Of a DNA stretch of 64,000 nt, positions 3,166 to 31,214 are shown piece by piece. Each line of letters starts with the position of its first letter. Position 1 is the first letter of the stretch. Under the pieces are notes generated by a model. That model saw nothing but the letters and a program-made list of their open reading frames with translations, searched no databases and was not told where the DNA came from. A program made the translations under genes and the position numbers. The DNA is from Naegleria gruberi (lineage: Eukaryota): NCBI GenBank assembly GCA_000004985.1, contig GG738888.1, one strand, 5' to 3'.

Positions 3166-5271
3166 TTATAACCTATTCTCATAGGGTACACTAATAAGCA
3201 TTGTATCTTCTTCAATTCCTGATTTGAATAATTTTGAGAAGAAACCTCTCTTTTGATTATTACCACTGCCATTACCACTACTACCAATACCAATACCACC
3301 TATAGCACCATTACTATTCATCATCATTATGGAAGTTTGTTGTTGTTGATAGGGATAATCCATACTATTGGCTCTACTTCTACTACTACTATAATTACTT
3401 TGATTACTATTGGCTCTCTCTCTTTGAATTGCATTACTATTAGAACGACTATTTCTATTATTATTATTATTATTATTATGTGAATAAGGAGAGGAGGTAA
3501 TAATATATTGTTGATCATTCAATAGACCACCACCACCACTATGTAATGGTGGAGACATGATTAATGAACTTGCTTCACTCTGTTCATCCAAATCAGATTC
3601 TATACCACCTCCAATACCACCATCAATACCACCACCAATAATACACCAACACCAATATTTCCATTATGATAATTATGATAATAATAATTATTGTGTGTAC
3701 TCAAAGTTGAATCAGTGTAATGTGTTAAATCATTTTCATCTCTAACAATATCACGTATAATTTGATTAGATTTATGAAATATATAACACATTAAAAATGG
3801 TGTAAAATCTGATAGAGAATTAATAAATCCAATTACAATAATATAAGAATCATATAAAATTAAAAGTCCATTTCCATATAATGAAATATAAATTTCAGTA
3901 AATATTAATTGTGAAATTGATTGTAATAAATAAACCATTATACAAATAATCATTGAATAAAATAACCATTTGCTAGTTGATTCAATTCTATTCATTAATT
4001 TTGGACCATTTCTATAATTATATGAAGATTGTGATGATAAATTATATTCAATATTATTTTCATTCTCTTTATATCTACTATTATTATTATTATTGAATGT
4101 TGTTATTTGTTGTTGTTGTTGTTGTTGTTGTTGTGGTGGTACTGTTGTTGTTACTGCTGCTAATTGTGTGGTGGTGGTGGTGGTATTTTGTGTTATTATT
4201 TGTGTTATTATTTGTGTTGGTCTTCCATTAGTAGTGAATGAATTTCTTTTATAAATTTTTAAACCTTCAACAAATGATAAATTCCACATTGATTTTCTTT
4301 TCCAAATTGAGTAAAATAAAAACCAAATAATTAATGAAAATGATAAAAATGCATTTAAACAATGTTCAACTCTAACAATCCATGTAAACCATATTGTATT
4401 CATATTTGGTGAATATAAATCTGGATAACATTTAATAAATACTAAAATTGACATTGTAATTTCTAATCCAATCCATAAAATACTACACGTAATAAATATT
4501 AATAAATGTTTAAATTGTCTTTTTTGTATATTTGCACTTGCATATCCTCTTTGAAATGATTCTAATTCACTCCAAAAAAATGCCTTTTTTTTTAATATTA
4601 TTTAATATTTAATATTATATTGTAATAATATTTAATATTTTTGTAATAATAATAAAACTTACAATTAAAAAATAAGTATTATGTAATAAAATACCACTCA
4701 ATGTAAATGCAACTAGAAATATTTGAGAATGAGACCAATTATTTCCAATATCAAGAATATTTGTTGGTAATAATTCAAAACCAACAAGAAAATAAATTAA
4801 AAATCTAATTAAAAAATATGGAATTATTTGAATATAAAATAAATATTGTAATATTTGACTAGGTTGTGAATTTGGATATAAATTCTTTTCTCCATTTCTA
4901 AAATCTTTTAATCTTTTAAATTTTTTAATCCATTTTGAAATTTTATTAACAAGTAAATAAATTGAATAACAAAAAACTAGTGAAAATCCAAAAAAGTAAA
5001 ATACAAAAAAACAAATAAATGTTGGATGTAGATAATTATTAGAAGGTGGTTGATCATTTGTTGTTGTATTATTATTAATATATCCGAATATTTGTTCTTG
5101 TACAAGTGATGATAATGATGATAATGATGATGGTGAAGATGATGGTGATGTATTAATAATATCCGCAGCATGATTCCTAGTATCAGTCCAATCATGATGA
5201 TATGATGATGTAATGATTTTAGATAAAAGTGTACTACTCATTGTTGAATAGTGTTGAGAGGTGTCGATCAT
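3166..5271 (-). CDS. Multi-pass membrane protein. Exons are 5271..4663 and 4583..3602, separated by a 79-nt intron at 4584..4662. The low-complexity ORF 3166..3591 may be a C-terminal extension reached through a weak GTGTTG intron or a frameshift.
   Basis: GTAAGT 5' splice site (RC of acttac at 4657-4662) and a poly-A...AG acceptor join ORF 4615..5271 to ORF 3600..4454 in frame as ...FLI|AFFWSE.... Several hydrophobic helices. The N-terminus is poly-S. Confidence 0.5.
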
Positions 5272-5495: not shown

Positions 5496-6455
5496 TTAAA
5501 AATCAGTTTCAATAAATAGAATGTCAAACATAGACCCTGACATATCAAGGTTCCATTCAGTAATATCAGAAAGAGGAGAATCCAGTTGAGAGTTTGAAGA
5601 TATTGTTGATGATTGATCTGATAACCGTGAATTTAATTCAGGTTTTGGATCAATTCTGTTGTAATTATCAATAATAAACTCGTTACTATTCAATGGTGCC
5701 ATGGTATCTGATTGATACAGTGAACCATGTATCACCACTGAATTAAAATTAATTGGTGATGATTCATTCAAATTGTAAGTGGAAATATCTTGTTGTTGAG
5801 CAGCAGCAGGTCTATTATTGAAACTAGTAATAGAGGATTCATTGGATATTGTTGGAGAGAAAGAGTTATTGGTTGGAGTGGAGGTAGAGGCAATGGTAGT
5901 GATAGCAGTGATGGCAGGGGAGGCAATGGTAGTGGTAGTGGCAGCAGTGGAGGTAGAGGCAGTGATAGTAGTAGTAGTTGGAGTAGTAGTATTAGAATTG
6001 GATGAATTGAAATTAACTACATTATTTAAAGAGGTAGGTGTAGAGCAAGAATTAGATCTCAAAGGAGTGGAAGGAGCATGAGGAACAATGTACAACACTT
6101 GTTTGTTTAAAGACAAGTCTAAAATTTGTAAACAATCAATGTGCGGACGAGAATGTCTTCGTTGTTTTTGTGATCCATTTGAAGGACATGAAGCACTTGA
6201 AGAAAGTGCTTTAGGTCTTCTTCGTTTTGTCACTCCATTGAAGAATTGTACTCTTCTATGGTTTGAATTCATGAATGATGATGATTTACTTGTTAGCTGG
6301 TTTCTAGAACAATTATTCATTAAACTTCTACAAGTATAACAATCATTATTCATATTTGTTGGTTGTTGTTGCACATAAAAATTGTATTTACCTGTTGTGA
6401 ATCTGCAAAAGGTTTTTTCAAAGGGATTAGCGTGGCTTTTAGGGGCTATTTTCAT
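5496..6455 (-). CDS. S/T-rich low-complexity protein with an N-terminal Cys/His cluster (CRF..C..C). Function unknown.
   Basis: 319-aa ORF with eukaryotic codon bias. The antisense ORFs 5790..6005 and 5818..6081 are reading artefacts of the repetitive ACT/AGT-rich tract. Confidence 0.35.
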   Translation of the reverse strand: MKIAPKSHANPFEKTFCRFTTGKYNFYVQQQPTNMNNDCYTCRSLMNNCSRNQLTSKSSSFMNSNHRRVQFFNGVTKRRRPKALSSSASCPSNGSQKQRRHSRPHIDCLQILDLSLNKQVLYIVPHAPSTPLRSNSCSTPTSLNNVVNFNSSNSNTTTPTTTTITASTSTAATTTTIASPAITAITTIASTSTPTNNSFSPTISNESSITSFNNRPAAAQQQDISTYNLNESSPINFNSVVIHGSLYQSDTMAPLNSNEFIIDNYNRIDPKPELNSRLSDQSSTISSNSQLDSPLSDITEWNLDMSGSMFDILFIETDF

Positions 6456-6810
6456 TTGAGATATTTTTTTTTGAAGTTGTTTTTAGAAAGCCTAGTCGCT
6501 TGAATACGCTTTAAAAATGGCCACTAACACCATTTAATAATAATAAGGATACTGAATATTTTGAGAGTTTTACCAATTGTTATTGATAAATGATTTGGTG
6601 GAGTGTTGATTGTTTAGTAGTACAACATGTGTAAAAAGACAGGTCATTGAGTACGAATAATATCAAAATCTAATACTACTACTACAAGGTTACCAAGTAT
6701 TGTAAAGTAATGATTTAAAAAGTGAAGGAATTCAACCAACCAGTAGGAATACAAGGCTTGTTGGTTGAAGAAAGAGCGCAAAACAACACTACAAAAGAAT
6801 CTTCAGCAAC

Positions 6811-6824
6811 ATCTCGGCCGAGAT
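6811..6824. repeat. Perfect 14-bp GC-rich palindrome ATCTCGGCCGAGAT in the intergenic/promoter region.
   Basis: Read directly. The sequence equals its own reverse complement. It is GC-rich in an AT-rich background. Confidence 0.5.
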
Positions 6825-6855
6825 GATGACAACTTCAAGTGGCTAGCAGTAGTCG

Positions 6856-6899
6856 TTGGCGCCAAATGGTTTTACAACAACGATTACAATTTTGGCGCC
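6856..6899. promoter_or_regulatory. Pair of E2F-like GGCGCC-core elements: TTGGCGCCAAA at 6856-6866 and TTTTGGCGCC at 6889-6899. Together they form a 10-bp inverted repeat with a 22-nt spacer.
   Basis: Read directly. They match the E2F consensus TTTSGCGC. They lie about 400 bp upstream of the ATG at 6455. Confidence 0.3.
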
Positions 6900-7128
6900 T
6901 AATAGATAGTAATGTTGTGGATTATAATGAAATTATCTCTTTGAAATTGTATAATGGCTCAATGCTTTTTTTGAATTTCAATTCCAGAATGGTTTTATCT
7001 ACAAATGAACTCTAAATTGAATTTGGAACAGACTTTACAAAACACTCTACAATTTTCAAGATCCATTTCATAAACAGAGATGAAACCAAAAACTTCTAAA
7101 AGATTTATTTGGAAATTACTTGAAGTTT

Positions 7129-8265
7129 TTAAAAATTATTTTCAATAACTCTTGTAATATTTTCAATCTTATCTCCAACCTTGCTTTCAGTTTGTTCCAA
7201 ATCTTTTACAAAATTTTTCTTTGGTTGATAAGTTGATTTAGTTTTTGTAAAGGAATACTTTAAATTATCAAATTTAGATAATTTCAAATCTAAGAAATCG
7301 TATGGTTTCAATTTTTCAAAATCATTGAACATTTGATCACATGATAATTTCCAATCTAATAATTCTTTCAAATAATCCATTCTAAATTGAGATTGTTTAT
7401 CAAGTGAATATAAAACTTCACTTTCCTTCTTTTCAAGTAATTCTTTAATTTTCAAGAATTGACTTTGAATTTTTTGTTTAGTTTCTGTAGTTGAAATTTC
7501 AGTATTACCCAACTCATTTTCAAGTTGATTAACTGAAATTTTCTCTTCATTAATCCATTTATCAATATCAGATTTAAATTCAAATATTTCTTCTCTTTCA
7601 ATTCCTTCAACATCTTCAATTAAATGAATTTTATGAGTATTGTGAAGTTTACTAACAGCACAAGCAGAACACATTAATTTCTTACAAGTTTTACAAAGTG
7701 AATTAATGGAAATATTATGAGTTGGACATTTATGAATTGCACTTTGTCTATTGTAATTATAATTTAAATAAATTATAATTAAATATATAATAATTAAATA
7801 ATAATAATTAAATAAATATTAATAATAAATATAATTAAATAATAATAATAAATAAAAAACATACGATTCAGCACCACTAATTCTAACAATTCTAATAGCA
7901 ATTTCAATTTCATTCTTTTTAGGAGTATTTAAAGATAAAGTTCTCTTAACTTCTTCATTTAAATGAAATTGATTAGTATCAATTTGTAAAGAAACATTTC
8001 CAATAAATTCATCTTTGGTAATTTTGTTTTCATCCATAACAGTGAATAAAAGTGTTACATTTGGAATATTCTTCAATACCATTCCAGAGACTGGAATTAC
8101 AAATTCATTATTCCACTCTGGATTTGATGATTTTGAAATAACAAATGATTTCTTCTTTATATTGGCATCTAAATTAGTTTCAACTAGACAGTAGGCATCT
8201 TGTTTTGATGATAAATTAGCTCCAATTGTACGAACAATAATTAAATCTCCATCTAATAAACTCAT
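7129..8265 (-). CDS. C2 domain + B-box zinc finger + coiled-coil protein in 2 exons (8265..7865 and 7747..7129). The intron is 7748..7864.
   Basis: Exon 1 has a C2-like motif (NPEWNNEFVIPV). The GTATGT 5' site (RC of acatac 7859-7864) and CAATAG acceptor join in frame (..GAES|QSAIHKCPTHN...). A B-box-like C/H pattern (CPTH...CKTCKKLMCSACAVSKLHNTHKIH) is followed by a coiled coil. Confidence 0.55.
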
Positions 8266-9523: not shown

Positions 9524-9837
9524 TTTTATTACTTTTATTAGAGTAATTAATAATAATATCTACATCCCAACGAATAACAATGATGACATCATATCATACG
9601 TGGAAATGTAATATTATACTATTTGATTGTTTCTACTTTCAATGGTATACTAAATTTTCGAATTGGCCAATATTCAAACAAGCCTTCTTCCTCTATTCAA
9701 TGATAGCACACTAGTAGTAGGCTTTAAGAAAAAGTTAGGCTTCCTTCACAAAAAAGCCTTCTCAAAAGATAAAATGCACATTCTTGTTGATGTTGTTTGA
9801 AAAAAGCCTTCTTCTGAATTTTCTCGGAACTAAAAAA

Positions 9838-12800
9838 ATGGATAAAACAAAATCACAACAGCAGCAACAACAATATGTAAACCATCAACATGTTGAGGAG
9901 GATGATGAAAAATCGACGAGTTATGATTTGGTTGCGGAAACAAAGAAATGGTGTGATGAATTTGATATTAAACAAATAGGAACATTATTTGAAAATAAGA
10001 AGGCTACTATTGATGTTTCATCAATGCAAAATACTCAAATACTTGATGAATTATATGAACATTTTAATGAGAGATTACTTTCTAATCAAACATTAAACGC
10101 CATGCAATATAGTGTGCACGGATTGGTTCAATCATGTTTAAAAACAGTCAAAAAACCAATATTTACAGTATTACTTAAATTAGTGAATATTTTAACATCT
10201 AAACATAAGAAAGTTTTGGATTCAATGTTATCTTCTAATTCTACTAGTTTGAAGAATGTAAATTTCCTTAGATTTTTATTCATCTTTGAAAAGATTCTTG
10301 TTGATATATATTCAAATTCAAATTCATTGAATGATGAATCAATTCAATTAATTCAACAAATATCAACAAATTTCATTGCTACTCATCAAAATTTAGAATC
10401 TAATCAATCAAATGATTTGAAAAATATCATATTTTCAGCACTTTCTATGAATGAACTATTTTCATCACTATTTTCTTCAGGTGTTGATCAAAGTACTTTA
10501 ATTTCAATGATTGATTCATTAAATAATATTGCTAATCATTTATTAACAAAGAAAGATTTAGTGAATTGGGCTAATTTAGTTTATATGAATATTACTTCAA
10601 GAGTTTTGGAAATTTCTTCACGTTCCTTATTACAATCTTCTATGAAAGTTATTTTTACTTGTAAAATTGCTTTTAAATTAATTACTTTAAAATTTAAATT
10701 TTTAAATATTATTGATAAAATTAATTCTACTACTACATCTATTAATAATATTAATAATAATAATACTATTAATAATAATACTATTAAATCTAATACTACT
10801 ATTAATAATAATACTACTACTACAAGTCTAAATGATAACTCAATTATTGAAAAGTTAAAAGAACAAGTACAAATTATCAATCAATTAATATTTGAATTTC
10901 TCAAAAATACTAATGGAGGTATTTCAGATTATTTAGATAATCCAGATGTACAATGTTATGGATTAATTAATGCTAGAAATGTTTCATTTAAAGCAGGATT
11001 TTTAAATGAATGTGTTGGAAGTAATACATTCTATTTCTTTAAAGAATTTGTTTCTATTTTAAGACAAGAACCAAAAAGTTTATTCAATTCTATTGAAAAT
11101 ATTTACAAATCATTTGAACATGAAATTAATACTTTCCAACATTTAACAGAATCTGTTTCATTATATATTAAAATTAAACAATCATTCATATTTAGTTTAA
11201 TGTGGTTAACATATTTAGAATATCAAAAGGAAAATATTAATAGAAGTGATTTTTTAAATTTAATAATTTCATATTTTAAAATTATTCAAAAATTTGATAT
11301 TTACAAAATGGCATCAGAAAATTCAGTTTCTTACAAATTTTTATTTGAATTTGTAAATAGAATTTTTAGAAATATTTTAATATTTGAAATTGATAATTCT
11401 CCAAAAGAAGAAATTTATTCCATAATTGAATGTTTAAAGTTAATAGTAACAACAGATTATCGTATTCTTGATGGTTTTTATAGTTATATTTGGAAGATTG
11501 TTTTCCAAATTGATTCAAATGATGTTGAAAAATTAAATTTGAGTCAATTCATTGGTGAAATGTTAGACATTTTTGTACATTTTGCTAAAGGAAAGAGTGC
11601 TTTTGATGACATGTTTAATGCTATTGATATGTTATCTTTATCATTATCATCCACTAAGTATACTAGTACTACTAGTACTACTAGTACTACTACTGCTAAT
11701 ACTGGTGGTAAACAATTTAAAAAGAATAGTAACAATACATCCATTAATAATAATAATACTAATAATAATAACATGATTCTGAATAATTCAATAATTCAAT
11801 TAGAATCATTCAGAAATAGTATTAAGAATTTGATTCAAAATATTGCACCAACAGATATTATAATTTATTTTAAATATTTAATTGATACAATTTCACAACG
11901 TTTAAATAATAACAATAATAATCATAATAATAATCATAATAATAATAATAACAAGTTGAAAAGTATGATAACACTTTTATTATTTCCATTGACTTCATTT
12001 GGATTTTTTGTTCAATTAAATGAATCAAATTATGAAGAAATGCAAAAACTTGCAAAACAAACATGTTCAGAAATTGTTAAAAAGTTAATGAATGAAATGT
12101 CAAATGAATCAAGTGTAATTCAACTCTATTATTCAATGAGTAATATTATTCATAGATCTGAAGAATTTTCATCAGATGTATTTTCAATGAAAGAAATTGT
12201 TAATGATAAAGATTTTATTGTTAATTTTCATGATGGTACTGGTTTAACAATGGATGAATTTACTAATAATCAATCATTTATACAAGTATTTAAAGAATTA
12301 TCATTTATGAATAAGGGTATTTACTGTTATATAATTTTTAGAAGATTAATGATAATTAATCAACAAGTTAATATTAGAAGACACAATTTAACAACTTCAA
12401 ATCAAAATTTATATTCATATGAAACTCATGAAAGTAGAAGAGAACAAAAATTATTAACAAGAAATTTTCAAACTTATTTTAATTTTATTCAAGAAGAATT
12501 ATCAATTTTATCTAACATTCATCAATTTGAAGAATTTACACTTGAAGAAATTGAAGAATTTGATTGGGGAGGTATTATTGAATCTATTAATAGTGAAAAA
12601 AAGTACATTTCAATGTTATGGTATTTAACTGCTACTAATTTTATTTATATTATTCCATATTGTGATGAAGAAGAATTATTAAAATTATGTAATTTTATTC
12701 TAACACAATCTATTAATGGTATGAGATTGAATAGATCAATGTTATTACCATTCTCACTTGAAAGAGTTACATTAGATTTATGGAATGATGATTTATTATT

Positions 12801-13569
12801 TGAACAAGAAAAAATTCAATCTTCATTTGAATCTTTCTTATTTAATTCAATTTTAAATTCTATTCAATTAATATCAAATGATATGTTTTCAAATGAAAAG
12901 AAATGGATTGAAAAAATTGAAAAATTTACATCAAGTATTTCATCTTGTAAAATTGAAAAGAAAGTTTCATCCATTTTTGAATATATTGAATCTAAAGTAT
13001 TTAAAGTAAAGGATAATAAGGAAATTGATGAAAATTTATGTTCAATTTTTAAATCAGATTTTAAATTAACAAATATTAATCCTCAACAAGGAAATTTATA
13101 TTTAAATCCATATATTAATTTAATTTTATCATTCCCACCAAAATACTTTTCACACTCATTTACATTATCAGTTTTATCATTATTAATGATTTATGATGCT
13201 TTTATTTGTTTAGATATTTTCAATAATAATAATACCAATACTACTACTCAATATAATAGTGATACAAGTAATTATCCATTATTTGGATCGAATAGAGTTA
13301 AATTTATTGAATCTTGTAGAAAAGTTCAATTATTATTATTACGTAATTTACCAGAAGAAAATATTAGAAATTTATCTCAATCTTTTATTTATAGATTTTA
13401 TATTCGTACAGTTTATTCTTTAAATTCTAAATTTACTCTTAAAAATATGAATGAAATTGTAAAGAATATTGAAAATTATACATGTGATATCATGTCCATT
13501 CTTTTCAATATGGGATTAGATAAGGAAATGAGTGAAGATAAAGAATGTTTAATCATTTCATTATTATTA

Positions 13570-13617
<48 letters not shown>

Positions 13618-15261
13618 ACAAATAATACTACAACAATAGATAATGTAGCACAAGTAAGATTTTCCAATTGTTTATTAGGAAGTATTTATTCATTTATTAA
13701 GAAATCTATTATTGAAGAGGAAGGATCTTCTATTCAAAATAGAAATTTCCAAATTGAATCCAATATTTATTCATTATTATTTACAAATGGAATGTATGGA
13801 AAGAAAAAGAATTTTTATTTTGCATTTACTGATAGAGTTAAATCCATTAAGAATGATCCTCATGTTTATCAAAGTCTTGTAATTTCATCACAAATTTTAC
13901 TTTTAATTTCAACAAGTAAATCTAAATTACCATCATCTATTGATCATAATACTATTAATGAATTATATAATGTAATGTGTGAAAAGGAAGTAACATTTAA
14001 TGTTTTGAAAGATTTAATTGAATTAGTAACAATGTTTGGTCCAAATTCTCTAGATGAAGTAAATCCACTTCCTATTCCTCCAAGTAAATTATTTAGAAAA
14101 GTTGTTAAATCAATTCAAGATGTTAAAGAAGAAAAATTATTAACTTTAATGGTTACAACATTGAGTGGTTCACATAAGATTTTCCTAATTAATATGATTA
14201 TTGATCAATTGAAAGAATTTAATCAACATCTTGCAATGCCAAATATTTCTGTACAAAATGCTTCAATTCATGTTGATCAAGTTCAAGAAAATGTAAAGAA
14301 ATTAATAGATATCATTTCAACTGTTCACATGTGCTTGATTTCAATTGACAAGTCAGAATTGAACTTTTATTTATGTTCTGTTATTGAAGCTATCAAATTG
14401 AGTACTAGATCTTATCTTTTTAACACAATTCCAATTTCAAATATTTCTTCAATTAGTTCTGATTATTGGAAGATTAATTCTTCAGTTCAAACTTTAATTA
14501 TGAGATTGTTAAAGTTTATTAATTATATTTCATTAGAAATCAAATCACCACATGTTTATACAACCAAAACAACAATGGATTTATTCCTTTCTTTAATTTC
14601 AGATATTGCTGTTTCTACAAGTATATTCACATATTCTTCAATGGATGTAGCCAGTAGAGGAAAGAATATTATCATGTTATCTAAATTATCAGCTGAAGAA
14701 TTGTTAACCATGAGATTGGATCCAAATATTATTATAACACTTTCTGAAATTTTGGGATATATTGTTCAACATTCAATTTTAAAGGTTACAAAGGTTTCTA
14801 TTGTTCAATCAACTCTTAATTCCTTAATTAATATGCTTTTTGAGAGGGTAATCATTTTTGAGTCAATTCTCGAAACAAAGGAAGTTGATAATATGAATAC
14901 TTGTGTGAGATGTACTGAATCAATCGGATCAGTTTATAATACTGTTGCAAAGATTTCTAGTTGGGATGAATTTAAGGCACATATTGTATTTGAATTTATT
15001 TCAACTTATGCTGCTGTTAGTGATATGGTAAGAATGGATGATAATACAATGGATGAAAGACTTTACATTTCCAAATTACTTGGTACTAATAAGAAGAAGA
15101 TTCTTGATACCTTTGTCAAGAGTGGAATTCATACCCTTATTCATATTCCAATTGTTAATTCAAAGATTACAAGTTGGATGCAAGATTCTACAAGCTATCA
15201 ATCCTTACAAAATCTCTTCTCACAAATTTTACAATATAACAGTAATGATCTCGGATTCTAA
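9838..15261 (+). CDS. Very large (about 1807 aa), mostly helical low-complexity protein of unknown function, encoded without introns.
   Basis: Single 5.4-kb ORF. The ATG at 9838 has an A-rich context, whereas the track start at 9784 is probably 5' leader. It contains poly-N/T tracts, for example (AAT)n at about 13569-13615. Confidence 0.5.
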
Positions 15262-15265
15262 TAAA

Positions 15266-18084
15266 TTATTTACTTATATCATAACCTGAAAGAGAAAAGA
15301 GGAACAAATTAGACATGTCATCACCAGAACATATTGTTAAATCATCTGGTGAAATTGATACGGCTGAGACTGGGAATTTCTTCTCCTCAAATGAAGTAAC
15401 AAATGGATTACCACTTGAGATTGAATAAACTTGTGTAGCATAATTATCTCCACAAGTTACCAACAGAGAAGTACCTGGTTGATTAGACCAACAACTACGT
15501 GTTGCACCTTGTTTTTGGATAAATTCTAAACTATGTCTGAAAGTAAAGAGTACTTGATTCATTCTCTGGTCTACAACTCTTACTAAACCATCATAACCTC
15601 CAGTAGCCATGTAGGTGTCATCAGCTGACCAATTTACAAATGAAACTCTATTGTGAAGTCTAGTGTTATGAATATCACCAATCAAGTTCTTTTCCTTTGT
15701 ATCATAAACATGCACAGTACCATTTTCTCCACCAATGGCAATCTTCTTTCCACAGTGTGATAGAGAAAAAGCTTCTGTTCCATTATTCTTGGTTCTTATT
15801 TTGTCCAACAATTGATAAGTATTCACATCATATAAAAATATTTCTCCATGTTTCTTATCAGAAGATAGAATACTCATTGCATAAAATACATTATCTTTTC
15901 CAAATTCCATTCCAGATATTTCAGTTTTTACCTTTTCTCTTGCCATAAGGTCAATTATCATGGATCCACTTCTAATATCCCAAAACTTTACACTCTTGTC
16001 CTTCTCTGAGCATGAAGCGATAACATGTGAATCATCTGGATGGATAGCCAGTAAGCTGACTTCATTATCGTGACCTTCTGAGTTTTCTGATTTTTTAATA
16101 GTCTTCAATAGAGTGCCATCAGAACCAAAAACTCTAATGGCTTTATCAAACGACGAGGTGACTACCTTTCCATCTTGGGTAAACTTGACATCTGTTACTG
16201 TATCTAAATGTCCTTGAAGCTTCACTCTCTTTCCTTCCTTCAAATCAAACAGGTAAGCGTTTGGCTCTGAATTGGTTGAAATTGCAGCCATTCTTTCACT
16301 TGATTTATCAAAGGCAATTTCTACAATGGAACCAGAAAAGTCTGAAAAGGAGCTTTTTGTGACGTTTGGACTTTGCCAACATTGTCTATATGTAGTATTC
16401 AAATTAAATCTATCAGAATCTGGTAAATCATTGTAAATTTTCTTAATATTGACATGCTTATTTAAAGTGAGATCGCTAGTCTTGATTTCTCTTGAAGCCA
16501 TCAACTCATTAATTGTCTTGGAACAAACAAGTGGTATTGGTTTTTCGTAGAAGGTAAATGCCTCTCCGTGTTGACCTTCTCCATTTGAAATATCATCCCA
16601 ATAATTTTTAATATCTTCACTAATTCTATTATCAAATAAGATAGCAATCTTCTTATTATTCCACTTGTTATGTTTGAGATATTTGATAATTTTAGCCTCT
16701 GCAGGTGTAAAAGGACAATGTATCAGATCACCATGAAGTAATCCTAGTTCTTTCAAATCTTCTGCCTCCATTTTGAGTAAATTTTCACATTTACGTCTCT
16801 TTAAATATGGCTTATAGTAAGAAGTAAATGGAATATCTTCTCCCTCGTTGTTTTTTCTTAAAAATAAATTAAATTGATAATCCTTTTCGAATAGAGATAA
16901 GTCATCCTTAACTACATGTCTAAGGAGACGTTGAATACGAATTTCTGGCAGAGTTGCATCAATCCTAGCTATTTGTAGAGCACTCAACTCAGCATCTGAG
17001 TCTAATAAATAATCTTTTTGTGATGGGGTTGCTTTTTTTGGGCAGTAGAGACTTTGGGCAGGAAGGAAAGGTATTCCTTGATAACAAATATTATCTGAAT
17101 TTCTATAAAAAGTTTGGACATTTTGGAGGGAGGAATTCTTTGCCATTTCACATGGATATAATAAATGTTTGAATGATAATTGTTCTTGAATATCTTCTGA
17201 TGGATAGTAATGGAAGTTTGGTGGAGCTAAATGTTTTCCTCTATTATGTTTGAATAAATGATCCAAAAGTTCAGCAGAGTTTTCTACAGCTTCACTTTCA
17301 TCATATAAATTGGTTTCTTCTTTAGGGGTTTCAGTTGTTGGGGAAGGAGATGATGGAGATGGTGGAGTGGATGGTTTTTCTTCAACTTTCTGTTTTTTTC
17401 TACTTTTTTGAGATTTCTCTTGTGTTGACTTGATTTCTTTTTTCGATTCAATTGTCGATTCTTTTAACAGTGGAGAAGAAGAGGTCGATGATTTAGAATT
17501 GTCAGTTTTAGTTTTCTTCTTGATCGTCACTTTGGGTTTCTGTTCATTTGTTTCAATTGTTTTGTTTGAATTTTCATCACATGCCGGTTTGTAATGATCA
17601 TCACTTGTCTTTAAATTAACATCACCACTTGTAGTAGTATATCATTCAAATCCTCAAACATAAAATCATCACCTCCTAAGCCACCTCCAAAATCAAAATC
17701 ATCGTCTATCATAAAATCATCAATTGTTATCTGCCTAGAATTTTCAATAGTCCCAGATGATGAACTAGTACTACTAGCACCTATTGTTGTCGCACGAGTA
17801 GTCTTTGCTGATGAAGATTGTAATTCAGCCTTTTTTGCTGATGATGTTAATTACCATGAGTCATTACAAATCCGTCATGTAGAGATGTACATTCAAACAA
17901 TCCACCATTAAATATTCATTCCGATAGGATAAACTTACCCTCTTGTATCATCCTAGTTATATTTCTACGATTTTCTGCAAGTTTAGACAAGGTTTCTGTT
18001 GCTGGTTGCATAGCAAAAAATACATTCACCTTGTTAGCATAGTAATCAATCTTTTCAACAAGAGCTTCCTCATCGTCAATCATC
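15266..18084 (-). CDS. WD40-repeat protein. The C-terminal propeller and main body are on the exon 15266..17530. Candidate upstream exons are 18084..17940 (MIDDEEALVEKIDYYANKV...) and an acidic DDFMIDDDFDF exon at about 17660-17880. The structure is unresolved.
   Basis: WD repeats are present (VTDVKFTQDGKVVTSSFD..., IAIGGENGTVHVYD). The main ORF has no in-frame ATG for its first 130 or so codons and its track start is GTG, so 5' exons are required. The upstream open frames do not join without a +1 shift near 17640-17660. Confidence 0.5.
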
Positions 18085-18147
18085 TGATTATTCAGTGAGA
18101 TTCGTTTTTATTTGACTTTTGCATTTTTTTTAATTTAATTTTTTTAA

Positions 18148-18159
18148 TTTGGCGCCAAA
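18148..18159. promoter_or_regulatory. Perfect 12-bp palindrome TTTGGCGCCAAA, a canonical E2F-type site, about 65-75 bp upstream of the WD40 gene's ATG.
   Basis: Read directly. It is the only GC-rich element in the 98-bp gap between the SKI3 stop at 18183 and the ATG at 18084. Confidence 0.4.
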
Positions 18160-18182
18160 CTTTTGTGAGCGGGAAGTTAACT

Positions 18183-21100
18183 TTATTTCTTCTTTTTGGC
18201 TTGTTGTTGTGGTTTGACTGGTTCTTTTGGTTTGAGAGCTTGTTGAATTGTATCCAAATAGTCCCAATATTTAGTATTGGATGGGTCTAATCTAATGGCT
18301 TTTTGAATGAATTTCAAAGCAGGAGCAGGCATTTCACTTTCAAAAGCAAATGAAGCAAGTGTGAAAACAACTTCTGCTTGGTTGGATGATTTGCTCTTTT
18401 CAGCCCATAAAGATTCTTCTGCTGGTCCCCAGTTTTCCTTATTGTAATGTACCCAGTACATGTTGATTGATGCAAGAGGTTGTTCTGGATCAATTCTAAT
18501 AACTTGTTGGAAGGCATTGAGTGCCTCCTCCAAATTTCCATTAAGGAATTGTAATTTACCATAAATCAAATAGACAGGAGCAGATTCATTATTGATTCTG
18601 AAAGCATTCTTGGTAAATTGAATACCATCAGTAATCATTTCCTTACTGTTATTAATGAGACTGATCATTAAACAAATATATGCCAACATGCTATTCGATA
18701 AGAATTCATTGCTCAAATCATTATTCTTCTTTGAAATGGATAAACAGCTTTCAACACAATACTTTGCCATTGTGAATTTCTTTTGATTAATCAAAATGGT
18801 TGCCAAAGTATACCAAGCGTACAAGTTAGTATTATCCTTTTTGAGAGAATTGGTAAATAATTTCATAACCTTTTCCATAGATTCTCCCTTAGCCAAAATA
18901 CATTTTCCAAGAAGTGCAAATAATGATGATTCAATAGTTGCATTATCCTTGTGCTTTTCCATTAATGACTTGATAGCACCCATACACTTTGTATACTCTC
19001 CATTATAAATATATTGTTCGAGCAAAGCAATTTGGAGTGGTAAATCAGTAACAGTATCATTAATTTCCAAGTAAGATTTAAGAAGAGTACCAGCAGCCTT
19101 ATTGTAAGAGTTTTCTTTTTCAATCAAAGAAAGTGAATGAGTACAAGAGGTAAGTAATCTGAAAATTTTCATATTGCTTGGATCTAACATGAGTGCTTTT
19201 TGAGCCATAGACATGGCATGTTTCAATGTAATTCTAGCATTATGATAAGATGGAGCTGAACCCATTGCATAGTACAAACAAGCAATATTGTACAATCTTT
19301 CAATTACAGAAGATTTGTCATTAACGAATGTTTCTGTAGAAAACTTTGAAAGAGAGTTTTGCAAGAGTTGGGTTGTGAGTTGAGAAATAGCTCCAGAGTT
19401 GGTAGAAGCAATTGGTGTTTCATCGACTTCAAATTTGGCCTTGCTCTTCTTATTCTTCTTCTTAACATCTGTTGCCATAGAAATGAATTGATAGTCAAGA
19501 GTAACTTGGGAAAGTAAATCCCACAACTTTGGTTCGGCAGGATTCATGTGAATGACCTTACAAATAGAGTTTCTAGCTTTTTCATATTCACCATAACTAC
19601 AATAAATAAGAGCTTCCAACTTGGTTGTTTCTAAACTTAAAGAAGATTGTCTTGCCTTCAACTTTCTGATTACTTCTAGAGCTGGAGTAGAATTTTTAGG
19701 CTCCGCTACAACTAATAAGGAAGTTAAACTGAGATAAGCCTCCTCATGGCTAGGGAATTCATTGATACTAATTAAAAAATTAGATTATTAGTAAAATTGA
19801 TCAATAAACTTACCATTTTTCAAAATATTCCTTTGCTTTCTTAAAATCTTTTTGTTGATAATAAACCTTGGCAATTAAATTATACAACTCAATTAATCTC
19901 TTTTCACTTTCAAGTCCTTCTTTAATTTTCTTTGAAGAGCTCTCAATGGCAGATAAGATACTCTTGATAGAGAATGAGAAATCTGAAGCAAAACAACTAG
20001 TAATGGCAGATCCCATCAAAATACCCATATCATCTGAAGAATATTGCTTGCAAAGTTCGAAAACTGAGCTGGCATCATTGAATTTAGAGAGTTTGCAAAG
20101 AACTCTTGCCTTGTTAATCCTAACTAGATATAACATATTTTCAACAGAGTATAAATCAGCTTCAGCAAAGATAATAGATTTGGTATTATGAATAAATCCT
20201 TTTTGTTGAGTATCAGCTTGGCTCTTATACTTGATTTGATAGTCAATCAAGAGGCCTTCACACTTGTTGAATGCTTCCAAAGATTTTTCATACTGTTGTT
20301 GCATTTCTAGAGCTACACCCAAAATATTCCAAGCAGCATAATCTGTAGTATTGAATTGGAAGTACTTCATAATAGATTGAATAGCATAAATAGAGTCATT
20401 GCTCAATAATGAAGTATAGGCAAGTCCAAGATAGGCAGGAGGAACATTTTCAAGAGTTGTTGAATGTTTGAAATCTTCCTTTGCTCTAATAACACCTTCT
20501 CTATTTGTAACATTTTCATTGATTAAAGCAAGACCAACCCAGGCAACACTGCTTTCAGGATAAATAGCTTGAGCTTTCAAGAATGCCTTTCTTGCCAATT
20601 TGAGGTTGAAATTCTTCAAGTATAAGGCACCTAAATTATTCCATGCAATATGATTCTTGGTATCGATTTGAGTAGCTCTAATATAACAATGTTGTTTAAC
20701 TACATCATTGTCAGAGATGATACCCATACAATTCCAATAATTACTATTATGTGGACTCAATGTAATGGCTTTTCTAATGTGTTCTAATGCCTTTCCTCTC
20801 AATTCTTTATGATCATCTCCATGAGGTCCTACCATATCAAAAAGTTGATTAATTTCAGAAACAGCCAAATCAAACCAAGTATCAGAATCATTCTCATCAA
20901 GAGAGATCAAACTTGTAAAGGATGTAGATGCTTGCTTCAAGTAATCCAACTTGGTCTTTAATTCATCTTGGAATGTTTCAATATAAATACTATTGTCATT
21001 CTTACACAATTCTCTGTATGTTGAGATGGCTTCCACAATATTTCTTTCAGGAATTTGGAAGCAATAACTTTGAATATCTCCCAATAATTTCCACAAAGTC

Positions 21101-23606
21101 TTGAGAGTAGCAAAGTGTTTCTTAATACCGTTTGTAAGAACACATTGGGCTCTAATAACTTGGTGAGCACATTGAGTGAATAAACCATCACTGTAATAGT
21201 TTTGTGCAACCTTGAACAAGACAGCAGCAATTCCTTCATAGGCAACAGAGAACTTTTCATTGAGAGCAATAACCTTCTCATAGATTTCTCTACTGTTGTC
21301 ATATTCACTCAACTGGAATTTGATAAAGGCTGATTGCACCATAGAAAATACCAAAGATGAATCTAATTCGACAGCTCTGGAGAATGCCTTGAGAGCTGCC
21401 AAGTATTTACCTTCTTGTTTATAGCTTTCTCCAAGACCTTCCCAGCAGAGAGCATGCAATGGAGAAACTCTTAAAGCGTGTTGGAATGAAAGAATGGATT
21501 CATCCAATAAATTTTGTGATTGTTGATAAAAACCAAGCTTTGCCCAAGCCCAACCAGCTCTATTGTTTCTAGAGGTGGCATCTTGGAAAAGACTGGCAGC
21601 AAGTGTTAATTGACCTTTAGAGATGTAAATATCGCCCAAATTTTCACCTGCTTCGTCCTCTAATGGATTCAAAGTAACGGCTTTCTTATAGCACTTAATA
21701 CATCTATCTTCATCTTGTTCGATATTCTTATAGAAATGACCCAAGTAAGCATAGTTACTTGAAAAGTTTGGATTCAATCTTGCAGACTTCAAAAGTAAGG
21801 AGTAACAGTACTGCTTATCTTGTCTATAACTTTCATTCCAATCCCAATAAACTTTAGACAATCTAAAGAAGTACAAGTAATTATTTGGATTAACTTCAAT
21901 GGCTGCATTGATGTACTTTACAGCTGCATCATAATCCTTGTCCAAATAACAGAACCAACCTGTTTGACAAAGAGTCAAATCGTCTTGTGGATTGATTTGA
22001 ATGGCTCTGACATAATATTCTCTTGATTTGGTCAAATTACCTCTTTGATATTCGATATCAGCAATACCCTTGATTGCATCAAGATTGTCTGCATCATTTT
22101 GCATTACCTCCTTATAAATTTCTTCAGCCTCTGCAAGAGCACCAAACTTCAACAGAGAATATGCTTGAAGAATCTTTAACTTTGCTACTTGCTTGTCCAA
22201 AGATGCTTTGGTTTGAGTTTTTCTTTCTTCAACAATTAACAAGCCCTTTCTAGCAATTTCAGAAGCATTCTTGTACTTTTCCAAACTCAAATAAAGCTCT
22301 GAAAGTAAGATCCAACCTTGAATAAAGTGAGGTATTAATTCAATACCTCTCTGTAAGAGAATCATTAATTCATCTTCAATCTTATCACTCTTAATATTTT
22401 CCTTTCTGAGCAATTCAAATAATTTAATGTAGGAAAGACCTTCATATGGGAATAAGTGTAACATTCTTCTAGTAATAACCTTTTCCTGTAAGTTCTTCTC
22501 ATCAAAAATGTCATAATTATCTTCTTCATTAATAAGGAAAAGTTGTTCAATAGCTTTGAAATAGTTCTTGTGCATGGAGAGAGCTTCCTTACAAATAGAT
22601 ACCAAACCTTGTTTTAACTATTTTAACAATTAGATAATTTCATCATATTTGAACGTACCTTTGTTTCAACTTCCTTGTCTTGGACTAGTCTGAAACGTTG
22701 TTGAGTTCTTTCTATCATCTTGTCAAAAACATGGAAATCGCAAAACATTTCATTCTTCTTACAAAATTCAACAATTTGAGCCAATAGGTTGTCGACACTT
22801 GTTTCCAAATTTTGAGAATAGTAAAATTGTGTAGTTTCTACTTTCAAAGTGACCTTCAATTCTTCTCTCTTATTCATTGGTAAGAGTTCAATATCACTTG
22901 GCATTAATTTTTCCAATTCTCTATCACTCAACTTTTTCTTTTCCTTCAAGAGTTTTTTCTTTTGTTTTTCACGAAGTTCAAGAATTTGTTCTTGAACCTT
23001 TTCATCAAGAAGTTTATCAATTTGCAATCTCTCTCTATATTGTTCAAGGAATAATGTATCGAGCATTTGTGTGTATTTTGATGATGAACTCTTCTCAGCA
23101 ATAATACTAAAATCATTGATCAATTTTTCATACTTGGAGATGAGTGCTGAAGTTAATTCACTTTCTGAAAGTGAACGAATATCCAAATTAAACCATTGAT
23201 GATACTTTCCAAGATGATTCAACCACTTTTCTTGATCTTTAGACTTGAGAAGAGGAAGTAATTTTTCGCAAACTTGTAAAGCCTTCTTCCTACACTCTGT
23301 AGCAGATGATAATTTTTGTTCATATAATTCTAACAAGCCTAATAATGGTTGTTCACTATCTTTTTGCAAACTAGCAGCCTTTTCATAGGCTTGCTCTGCT
23401 TGAGTAAAGTATTGTTCATCCTGATCAGCAACATATAATTTTCCCAGACAAAATCCACAATATAAAAACATGTTGAAATTTGTATTATCCAATTTTAAAG
23501 CCTTTTTTAATTCGACCAAGGCTCCTTTCCAATCTTGTTTTCCCATACATTCCTTGATGAGTTTGGCATGCTCCTTTAGCATCTTGGCAGAAGAAGCTTG
23601 ACTCAT
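18183..23606 (-). CDS. ski3: SKI3/TTC37-like superkiller TPR protein of about 1778 aa in 3 exons: 23606..22659, 22617..19814 and 19767..18183. Introns are 22618..22658 (41 nt) and 19768..19813 (46 nt).
   Basis: TPR repeats are present along the full spliced ORF, as expected for Ski3. The N-terminus (KEHAKLIKECMGKQDWKGALVELKKALKLDNTNFNMFLYCGF) resembles the first TPR of human TTC37. The 5' sites are GTACGT and GTAAGT with a TACTAAT branch. Splice phases agree with ORFs 22623..23606, 19810..22605 and 18183..19661. Confidence 0.6.
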
Positions 23607-30093: not shown

Positions 30094-31214
30094 CTTCGGC
30101 TTGTTGGTAATTAGCAGGAGGGAGTTTGGTATTTTTTTTAAGCGACAAATTTTTACAATAAAAACGAATAAAGGGGTTTATTGGAGCAAGAAAAACGCAT
30201 CACAAATTTTACCTCACAAAAAATGTTGAAGTAAAACTGCGAAGGTTTTTTTCATTTTTGAGTTATTTTTAGGAATTTTGATCAAGATGAATTTTCGGAT
30301 AAAGCTTTGTTATTGTTCAAAAGGCATTCAAAGAACAATAGCAAAGAGAAAGTCAAATAACTCTCTGTACAACAACAAACAACATCGATACAACACAAAA
30401 GGAAGATTGACCAATCACATTGACTGTTTCAAGAAACTGTCATATGAAAGTGCCAATACCCTCCTCTATGTTGTGTCTGGCCCGTAAGCCAGCAATTTAT
30501 TATTTGTGTAGGAAAGAATCCCTTTAAAAGGGTGTTGTATGAACAAGTGTTGGTGGAATGCCTTTGTGTTGTTGAGCATGAAGTTGCAAGTTAGGAGTTG
30601 TAAAATCTCCCATCAACAAACACTAAATTTTTAAGAGAAGATTTGTGCTTGTCGAATGCACCATTTTTTTTTGCTTGTGCAAAGCAGAAAAGGCGCTCAA
30701 AAATATTGAGCAACAACAGAGCCTGTGCAATATCCAAAATCTTGTGCACATTCTTGATGAAACTACAATTTATTAAGACATGATGAAAATATAATATCCA
30801 GATAATAAACAATGTGCTAGGAGCAAATACTTGATGCTGTCTTTCAATGGCTTGTTGTAGAACATTTCAAACCTAAACTATTTATAATCTCTTACAATGT
30901 TCGCAAGACTGCGTGAGATTTCTCTTTCCCGCCAATATTTTCAATGGCAAAATGATTGGATATTTCCAAGATATTCCCATTTGCTCAATAAGAATTTGTT
31001 GACTCATCTTTGTTTGTTTTTTGATGGGTTTGTTGAAATCGATACCTGTGGGAGAGTAGATATGTTGGTGAATGGTTGTTTGCCTTATTTCACACTCGCT
31101 GATTCAACACAATTAGGTCTTTTATTTGTTCAATTATGAAACTCCTCAAACCACCAATATTCGAATTCTACCATGAGCAATAATTATTGCAATCAACAAG
31201 TCACGAATAGAATA

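Follow-up and report, generated by a model that had tools for sequence, protein, structure and literature searches.

A perfect 12-nt palindrome, TTTGGCGCCAAA, at positions 18148-18159 (strandless) of the 64-kb window analyzed here (the whole stretch of Naegleria gruberi DNA) is probably a functional promoter-proximal binding site for the E2F-family proteins of Naegleria. TTTGGCGC can be read on each of its strands, giving two overlapping inverted E2F-type sites, and both strands match the TTTSGCGC (TTTSSCGC) sequence of E2F/DP-responsive elements. All 12 bases are identical to the JASPAR/HT-SELEX E2F1 consensus (PMC11580471, PMC5449588), which describes the in vitro preference of the human DNA-binding domain and not that of Naegleria proteins. 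By sequence, the palindrome is thus the canonical E2F/DP site that the first-pass annotation had taken it to be, and it is very probably an ordinary E2F-family promoter element and no new kind of element.

The palindrome occurs once in the window, where base composition predicts 0.0014 copies, and was found in none of 100 dinucleotide-preserving shuffles, which bears out earlier statements that it exists as described and is improbable by chance. The shorter TTTSGCGC motif was observed four times against 0.41 expected, a count reached in no shuffle, with two of the four counts being the two strands of the palindrome. All seven TTSSCGC matches in the window lie inside three ORF-free gaps, compared with 1.95 expected.

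The surrounding intergenic gap (18084-18182, minus strand) is 99 nt long and has a GC content of 28%. The two genes that flank it are encoded on the minus strand; the stop codon (TAA) of a SKI3/TTC37 orthologue occupies 18185-18183 and the start codon of the WD40 gene NAEGRDRAFT_58880 occupies 18083-18081. Gap limits of 18183 and 18084 had been given previously and hold to within one base, but the length is 99 nt and not 98 bp. Within this short stretch the SKI3 mRNA has to end and the WD40 gene needs space for both its promoter and its 5′ leader. Along the gene strand, the elements follow one another in this way: the SKI3 stop codon in an AATAAA hexamer (18182-18187, minus strand, as read from the sequence), CTTCCCGC, 9 nt, TTTGGCGCCAAA, an A-rich stretch, an upstream ATG and the annotated ATG. 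The hexamer could possibly be a poly(A) signal, in which case SKI3 mRNA cleavage would take place at about the E2F-type site. The same arrangement of hexamer and stop codon is also present in Willaertia magna and in the orthologous Naegleria locus L002.

The first-pass annotation was wrong in describing the palindrome as the sole GC-rich element of the gap, since GAGCGGGAAG at 18167-18176, which on the gene strand contains CTTCCCGC (18169-18176, minus strand), is also GC-rich. This second E2F-like element matches TTTSSCGC at seven of eight positions and has the palindrome 9 nt away on its 3′ side and the SKI3 stop codon 6 nt away on its 5′ side; it is not conserved in L002. On the gene strand, the distance from the end of the palindrome is 23 nt to the upstream ATG and 64 nt to the annotated one, both of which lie 3′ of it. 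The upstream ATG opens a short ORF ending in TGA (18092-18124, minus strand; MQKSNKNESH*) in a different frame from the main ORF; at this place, the N-terminus is extended in frame in the orthologues (MSxN..TSQ). Scans of the window with Rfam and for tRNAs were empty, and its GC-rich patches without ORFs are therefore no known RNA genes. The gap packs a putative poly(A) signal, a pair of E2F-like elements and a leader into 99 nt and illustrates how compact the regulatory DNA of Naegleria can be.

The SKI3-like and WD40 labels given earlier to the flanking genes are correct. The upstream gene (18183-23606, minus strand) has several exons, encodes a TPR protein and aligns in one piece with human TTC37/SKI3 (E = 3e-69) and with yeast Ski3. 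NAEGRDRAFT_58880 (15266-18083, minus strand) has three exons (18083-17939, 17837-17626 and 17539-15266) separated by GT..AG introns of 101 and 86 nt, and their translation of 876 aa is exactly XP_002673790 of N. gruberi. A Dictyostelium origin of the DNA, which its AT-richness had suggested, was rejected on this 100% identity in the protein search. The protein consists of a coiled N-terminus, a middle domain that is confined to Heterolobosea and includes a Myb/SANT-like three-helix unit, and a C-terminal WD40 propeller. Outside the propeller it has no homologues beyond Heterolobosea: a profile search of 1.84 billion representatives returned just heterolobosean relatives and short fragments, and Pfam found no domain in the N-terminal 500 aa. 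The best 60 matches of a PDB profile search were generic WD40 proteins only (WDR5 and designed repeats). In the AlphaFold model (mean pLDDT of 52), the three-helix unit alone is confidently predicted; a Foldseek search with this model gave nothing significant, and its best relevant match was a Myb-like domain, with a match probability of 0.2.

The neighbouring SKI3 gene raised the question of whether NAEGRDRAFT_58880 might be SKI8/WDR61, which is a small protein of about 300-400 aa consisting of a WD40 propeller only. We rejected this identity for a protein of 876 aa with a 500-aa non-propeller part, and it is further disfavoured by the lack of Ski8 chains among the best 60 PDB matches. Among about 35 ORFs of the window annotated with Pfam there was no classical S-phase gene, and NAEGRDRAFT_58880 is not named in any paper of the literature that we searched.

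Conservation of the site was assessed in four orthologous loci of 9.4-15 kb each (L001-L004), which come from Naegleria lovaniensis, two further Naegleria and W. magna. Counting both strands, each locus contains exactly one copy of TTTGGCG. In all four loci this copy precedes the WD40 start codon by 5-23 nt and has an unchanged orientation, with the gene strand reading CGCCAAA. The half-site TTTGGCG[C/G] directly 5′ of the WD40 gene is therefore kept in 4/4 loci, so the conservation in orthologous promoters that was proposed as a check on the E2F reading was indeed found. CGCCAAA alone is invariant across the five promoters, and the promoter flanks can be aligned between N. gruberi and L002 only. 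The site of N. lovaniensis and of L004 is TTTGGCGG and ends just 5 nt before the ATG; the half predicted to be contacted by DP is thus degenerate in these two promoters, and the site may be transcribed there.

The gene order of SKI3 followed by the WD40 gene is maintained in L001, L002 and L003. The site starts 23-24 nt past the SKI3 stop codon in N. gruberi and L002, lies about 1 kb from this stop codon in N. lovaniensis, and in W. magna is separated by about 290 nt from the SKI3 stop codon and by 23 nt from the WD40 ATG. In L004, the upstream neighbour is called as a divergent Ras gene and the site still adjoins the WD40 ATG. The W. magna distances and the L004 neighbour indicate that the element tracks the 5′ end of the WD40 gene and not the 3′ end of SKI3.

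N. gruberi encodes the proteins that would be needed to read such a site. NgruE2F, NgruDP, NgruDEL and NgruRB have been catalogued in this species (PMC4862756), and we located its E2F (NAEGRDRAFT_54558), DP (NAEGRDRAFT_50903), DEL/E2F7-8-type and Rb proteins in NCBI. NgruE2F and NgruDP align with chains A and B of the E2F4-DP2-DNA structure 1CF7 (E = 7e-25 and 8e-28, respectively), and their recognition helices are nearly identical to those in the structure, with RRIYD (E2F) and RRRVYD (DP) intact. The host therefore encodes both partners with the RRXYD motif preserved. E2F orthologues with PF02319 and PF16421 were also found in N. lovaniensis, Naegleria fowleri, W. magna and Acrasis, and thus in other species that retain the site. 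A homology search with a 2106-aa concatenate of the N. gruberi Rb, E2F, DP, DEL and cyclin sequences yielded a Planoprotostelium Rb only.

We also searched for the motif at four candidate E2F target genes (DEL, E2F, cyclin A-b and CDK1) in a small set of related strains and species, with mixed results. In animals and plants, the E2F7/8 and DEL1 genes, respectively, are themselves E2F targets, and E2F control of these atypical E2F genes forms a negative-feedback loop. In L008, which stems from a metagenome strain of the N. gruberi complex rather than from the reference genome, the DEL gene carries TTTGGCGCC 46 nt 5′ of its ATG, the sole TTTGGCG in 8.1 kb, as well as CTTCCCGCC at -161, which is the same variant as the second E2F-like element of the WD40 gap. 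Both motif variants of the gap are thus found at this gene; the likeness to the E2F7/E2F8/DEL1 loop in Naegleria consists of these motifs, on a metagenome-strain contig. E2F itself was positive in one of three species: the W. magna gene has TTTGGCGC at its 5′ end, within the annotated first exon, and the E2F genes of N. lovaniensis and Acrasis had no site upstream, so that we rejected E2F autoregulation as a general rule. Cyclin A-b of an N. gruberi-complex strain and CDK1 of N. fowleri both lacked an upstream site. Across the approximately 205 kb of heterolobosean DNA examined, all eight copies of TTTGGCGC are in non-coding DNA or at the 5′ ends of genes.

A close known counterpart of the Naegleria site is in the mammalian DHFR promoter, in which the E2F site adjoins the major transcription start. 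The DHFR promoter contains overlapping inverted E2F sites (ATTTCGCGCCAAA; Transfac R01928), and the plus strand of the window (AATTTGGCGCCAAACTT) is identical at 16 of 17 bases to the EMSA probe made from it (AATTTCGCGCCAAACTT; PMC3205837). Both are 12-nt, palindrome-like pairs of E2F half-sites with T/A tracts on either side, and the Naegleria site, like that of DHFR, is probably promoter-proximal. They differ in the central base pair, which is G/C in Naegleria and C/G in DHFR, and it is because of this difference that the Naegleria site is a perfect palindrome. The Naegleria site also differs in belonging to a discoban amoeba and to a gene that is not involved in nucleotide metabolism, and its position is given relative to the ATG only. 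The CDE/CHR elements of the DREAM complex are likewise cell-cycle promoter elements near the transcription start that involve E2F4-type proteins; however, the gap sequence has no CHR (TTYGAA) 4 nt past either GC element, so the palindrome is not of this type and we rejected that assignment.

An unlikely alternative is that the element is a conserved promoter site for a non-E2F factor, such as a lineage-specific reader of GGCGCC or CGCCAAA, and that its match to E2F is coincidental. The restriction of invariance to CGCCAAA across the five promoters and the mixed outcome at the candidate targets would be consistent with such a factor. On the other hand, the entire 12-mer in N. gruberi equals the E2F1 consensus, the invariant TTTGGCG comprises the T-tract and core that define E2F sites, E2F and DP have kept their recognition helices, and the same motif is present 46 nt upstream of a DEL/E2F7-8-type gene.

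It is very improbable that the element instead belongs to SKI3, as a signal for 3′-end formation or transcription termination or as a barrier between tandem genes. Its position in N. gruberi and L002, 23-24 nt past a stop codon embedded in AATAAA, is where cleavage would be expected, but the distances in W. magna and N. lovaniensis, the Ras neighbour in L004 and the similar sites upstream of DEL, where SKI3 is absent, are all at odds with this role, and we rejected a SKI3 terminator on synteny. Just as doubtful is a general core-promoter, initiator or mRNA-leader element of Naegleria without a specific regulon. The orthologous sites are so near the ATG (5-23 nt) that they may be at or downstream of the transcription start; however, the motif is rare, with TTSSCGC-type matches confined to three ORF-free gaps of the window and strict TTTGGCGC to five distinct places in about 205 kb, and the empty Rfam scan also speaks against a leader element. 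The general core-promoter role was rejected on this rarity, and an RNA hairpin was rejected as well, since the palindrome itself is not conserved and no hairpin is maintained. Least likely of all is a functionless chance match: scanning many gaps for any known motif yields some matches, and about one copy of the 12-mer would be expected from composition, by extrapolation, in the N. gruberi genome of some 40 Mb, but at least three independent lineages with non-aligning flanks share the half-site in position as well as in orientation, and TTTGGCG within 30 nt of an ATG has a chance of about 1e-3 per lineage, a positional statistic based on few independent loci.

If the palindrome is an E2F-family site, it would be bound by an E2F-DP heterodimer and possibly also by a two-domain DEL/E2F7-8-type protein. 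By analogy with animal and plant E2F promoters, we infer that Rb-bound E2F-DP (or DEL) would repress NAEGRDRAFT_58880 outside late G1/S, and that free E2F-DP would activate it. Such E2F/Rb control would tie the gene to the proliferative cell cycle. The homology searches gave no independent support to the role in replication, repair or the cell cycle that the first-pass annotation suggested for the WD40 protein.

In the literature searched, we found neither an E2F cis-element nor an E2F target gene described for a heterolobosean. The site described here could provide, for the first time, cis-regulatory evidence that the canonical E2F code (TTTGGCGC) and E2F-to-DEL feedback wiring operate in Heterolobosea (Discoba), a suggestion to which we give slightly less than even weight. 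The footprinted E2F-type site provides a concrete sequence for tests with recombinant NgruE2F-DP, and it offers a first candidate E2F target in an otherwise unannotatable WD40 protein that is conserved from Naegleria to Willaertia. The DEL motifs hint at an ancient origin of the E2F-to-DEL loop that is known from animals and plants. If these readings are correct, the last eukaryotic common ancestor would already have had this site specificity and some of the network wiring, and a lineage-specific Myb/SANT-like WD40 protein would be among the most constrained E2F targets. NAEGRDRAFT_58880 would then be a candidate for a new factor of the cell cycle or of chromatin in these amoebae, among which are the relatives of the pathogen N. 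fowleri.

The 12-nt palindrome TTTGGCGCCAAA (18148-18159) occurs once in the window, where 0.0014 copies are expected from base composition and no shuffle produced any; this confirms both the position and the improbability by chance proposed in the first-pass annotation. The window, from a heterolobosean amoeba (Discoba), is AT-rich (21 to 38% GC in 2-kb bins). The intergenic gap that holds the palindrome separates the stop codon of the upstream SKI3 gene (TAA, 18185-18183, minus strand) from the ATG of the WD40 gene NAEGRDRAFT_58880; its boundaries had been placed correctly to within one base, the exact gap being 18084-18182 (99 nt, 28% GC). The palindrome had also been described as the only GC-rich element there, which does not hold, as the gap contains a second patch, GAGCGGGAAG (18167-18176), whose gene-strand form (minus strand of the window), CTTCCCGC, matches TTTSSCGC at 7/8 positions. 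Along the gene strand, the SKI3 stop lies inside an AATAAA, and CTTCCCGC comes 6 nt after this stop; a further 9 nt separate it from TTTGGCGCCAAA. An A-rich stretch of 23 nt leads to an upstream ORF of 10 codons (MQKSNKNESH-stop; 18092-18124, minus strand; in a different frame from the main ORF), and the main ATG lies 8 nt beyond that ORF. Orthologues begin translation at the position of this upstream ORF, with an in-frame extension (MSxN..TSQ), and the N. gruberi arrangement reflects either loss of the ancestral start or an assembly indel at that spot. The AATAAA (18182-18187, minus strand) embeds the SKI3 stop in the same way in a metagenomic Naegleria (L002) and in Willaertia magna (L003); if the hexamer acts as a poly(A) signal, cleavage of SKI3 mRNA would fall roughly where the next gene has its E2F-type site.

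The proposed identity as a canonical E2F site is supported by the E2F1 binding sequence in JASPAR, which is the same 12-mer (PMC11580471), and the 12-mer is also paired in a table with the HT-SELEX E2F1 motif ATTGGCGCCAAA (PMC5449588). The mammalian DHFR E2F element, as used in an EMSA probe (PMC3205837) and catalogued as Transfac R01928 (PMC2784457), differs at 1 of 17 bases from the plus strand of the window (AATTTGGCGCCAAACTT). N. gruberi E2F, DP, DEL and RB proteins (NgruE2F, NgruDP, NgruDEL, NgruRB) are included in the supplementary FASTA of Medina et al. 2016 (PMC4862756), and the first three have exact NCBI matches (E2F, NAEGRDRAFT_54558; DP, NAEGRDRAFT_50903; DEL, NAEGRDRAFT_71591). 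NgruDEL carries two winged-helix domains and is of the E2F7/8 type, and E2F orthologues with PF02319 and PF16421 occur in N. lovaniensis, N. fowleri, W. magna and Acrasis kona. The DNA-binding domains match the E2F4-DP2-DNA crystal structure 1CF7 (E2F to chain A, 7e-25; DP to chain B, 8e-28), and the recognition helices are nearly unaltered (a 24-residue stretch in E2F; KNIRRRVYDALNVLMA.NIISK in DP). By this established structural model, Naegleria E2F and DP should read the canonical site. A factor outside the E2F family that reads GGCGCC or CGCCAAA is an unlikely alternative.

The E2F-type motif is over-represented in the window and confined to gaps. TTTSGCGC occurs four times against 0.41 expected, a count reached in no shuffle; the palindrome accounts for two of the four matches, one on each strand, and the other two lie in tandem at 6859 and 6891. 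For the looser TTSSCGC there are seven matches where 1.95 are expected (1/100 shuffles reached that number), all of them within three ORF-free gaps (6456-7128, 18084-18182 and 30178-31214), the stop-to-stop ORF mask covering 78% of the window and being slightly higher in GC. Every GGCGCC copy of the window sits inside TTGGCGCC. The tandem pair, TTGGCGCCAAA (6856-6866) and TTTTGGCGCC (6890-6899), has a spacing of 24 nt and lies 33 nt to the right of a 12-nt palindrome, TCTCGGCCGAGA (6812-6823). All three lie in the 100 nt of highest GC (47%) within a 670-nt gap that is free of ORFs, has no Rfam match and is bounded by minus-strand ORFs at 5496-6455 and 7129-7674. These elements precede the ATG at 6455 by ~400 nt; the low-complexity product of that ORF lacks a Pfam match and ends in ...DMSGSMFDILFIETDF, a tail with a faint likeness to the acidic Rb-binding tail of Naegleria E2F (DDFMFEMESGEGVSDLFL) that is too weak to interpret. 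An E2F7/8-like variant, TTTCCCGCCAAT (30925-30936), sits in an ORF-free gap of ~1 kb (30178-31214); a gene on the minus strand, without a Pfam match, has its ATG (30093) ~830 nt downstream of it.

We located four orthologues of the WD40 protein (41-61% identity), in N. lovaniensis (L001), the metagenomic Naegleria, W. magna and a Logan assembly (L004) close to N. lovaniensis (78% BLASTP identity overall, higher across the collinear part). On the gene strand, the sequence just 5' of the start codon is aaaatcTTGGCGCCAAAAAatcaaacaaaATG in the metagenomic Naegleria, gttacGCGCCAAAAttaagtttaaaaaaaaataaagATG in W. magna, aaactaCCGCCAAAAAAAATG in N. lovaniensis and gaaaaCCGCCAAAAAAATG in the Logan assembly; the N. 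gruberi counterpart is caaaagTTTGGCGCCAAAttaaaaaaattaaattaaaaaaaATG, in which the ATG is that of the short upstream ORF. CGCCAAA (TTTGGCG on the opposite strand) is common to all five promoters in the same orientation; absence of the site from orthologous promoters had been named as a refuting outcome for the E2F reading, and this half-site is kept in 4/4 orthologous loci. In each of these loci (9.4-15 kb) the promoter copy is the only TTTGGCG on either strand. Flanking promoter sequence can be aligned only between N. gruberi and the metagenomic Naegleria, and the upstream sequences of N. lovaniensis and the Logan assembly have little in common beyond the motif. With the window as background (6 copies in 128,000 strand positions, a count that takes in functional ones), the chance of TTTGGCG within 30 nt of the ATG, given orientation, is ~1e-3 per lineage, and W. 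magna and the lovaniensis clade are at least two lineages independent of N. gruberi.

The same loci bear on the remaining alternatives. That the palindrome serves the 3' end of SKI3 is very improbable and is contradicted by synteny: the site is ~290 nt from the SKI3 stop in W. magna and ~1 kb in N. lovaniensis, and the upstream neighbour called in the Logan assembly is a divergent Ras-family gene (L004, 1443-1952). The element tracks the WD40 gene, not SKI3. SKI3 and the WD40 gene are ~1 kb apart in the lovaniensis clade; the N. lovaniensis stretch (L001, 4940-6000) that corresponds to the Ras region has no called gene and may contain an unannotated Ras gene. There is similarly little likelihood of a general core-promoter or leader element; the motif is rare, and the full palindrome is lost in the orthologues. 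Chance occurrence, the least probable explanation, is contradicted by the conservation. The palindrome is a real feature and is very probably a functional E2F-family site.

Candidate E2F targets, picked ahead of inspecting their DNA and examined in related strains and species, gave mixed results that we take as moderate support for an E2F regulon. The E2F gene has no site at its locus in N. lovaniensis or Acrasis, and in W. magna TTTGGCGC occurs 45 nt into the annotated first exon (L006, 10046-10053), which encodes an N-terminal extension missing from the other species, Naegleria included. The DEL gene was examined on an 8.1-kb metagenomic contig from an N. gruberi-complex strain (L008; protein at least 90% identical), where TTTGGCGCC (3725-3733), containing the sole TTTGGCG of the contig, lies 46 nt 5' of the ATG (3771) and CTTCCCGCC (3609-3617) lies at position -161; the WD40 gap has this same pair of variants. 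Cyclin A-b (L009) lacks a strict site and has TTCGCGCCATTAA ~600 nt upstream, and the N. fowleri CDK1 locus (L010) has no site, its one TTTCCCGC, within a 5'-nucleotidase coding sequence, being an example of background. In W. magna, TTTGCCGC (L006, 15210-15217) was also observed in a divergent promoter, 46 nt upstream of an MGMT-like (PF01035) DNA-repair gene. Across ~205 kb of heterolobosean DNA, each of the eight TTTGGCGC copies falls in non-coding sequence or at the 5' end of a gene; the 7-mer TTTGGCG that lacks a C or G at the eighth position is found within ORFs or called genes too. In a crude positional test, the 150-nt stretches preceding start codons, 6.2% of the DNA, contained four of seven strict loci (binomial P = 4e-4); the independent positional evidence is thin because three of these four are the same orthologous promoter.

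Both genes flanking the palindrome had been labelled correctly. The upstream gene is a genuine SKI3/TTC37 orthologue (human TTC37 in a single alignment, residues 77-894, E = 3e-69; yeast Ski3 also matches). The three exons of the WD40 gene (18083-17939, 17837-17626 and 17539-15266, minus strand; GT..AG introns of 101 and 86 nt) translate to the 876-aa database protein, the large exon being 100% identical to 'predicted protein [Naegleria gruberi]' (XP_002673790 / D2VQ56 / NAEGRDRAFT_58880, exact match). The N-terminus of this protein is short, coiled and conserved; a conserved middle region (residues about 215-500; invariant motifs include CYQGIPFLPAQSLYCPKK and HGDLIHCPF) follows, and the C-terminal part is a WD40 propeller. 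Pfam gave no match across the first 500 residues, and a profile of the middle region recovered only heterolobosean orthologues and four weak fragments among 1.84 billion representative proteins. A PDB profile search returned generic propellers only, and identity with Ski8, despite the SKI3 neighbour, was rejected. An AlphaFold model from a five-sequence alignment (mean pLDDT 52) was confident only at residues about 184-223 of the modelled segment, which form three helices with Myb/SANT-repeat spacing; Foldseek found nothing significant, the best relevant match being a Myb-like domain (probability 0.2). A replication, repair or cell-cycle role, suggested in the first-pass annotation, is neither supported nor contradicted, and a chromatin-associated role would be a guess. 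The WD40 gene converges with an 1825-aa ORF (9784-15261, plus strand; about 21% GC, no Pfam match), with 4 nt between the end of this ORF and the WD40 stop (15266, minus strand), and the 3' ends must therefore overlap or abut.

In the mechanism we propose, the palindrome is bound by E2F-DP or by DEL (which prefers CCCGCCAAAA-like sites) at or beside the transcription start, as at DHFR, and this binding would couple the WD40 gene to the Rb-E2F cycle. The analysis establishes the sequence of the site, its statistics, its conservation and that intact factors are encoded; whether the site is occupied, in which direction and when the gene is regulated, and where transcription starts are inferred. 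The E2F7/8 genes of animals and DEL1 of plants are E2F targets; the motifs in the Naegleria DEL promoter fit this wiring and suggest an E2F-to-atypical-E2F feedback loop. If true, this would give heteroloboseans their first footprinted E2F element, the palindrome, and a first candidate target, the WD40 gene. Together with the DEL promoter, it hints at an ancient origin for both the E2F site code and the E2F-to-atypical-E2F loop.
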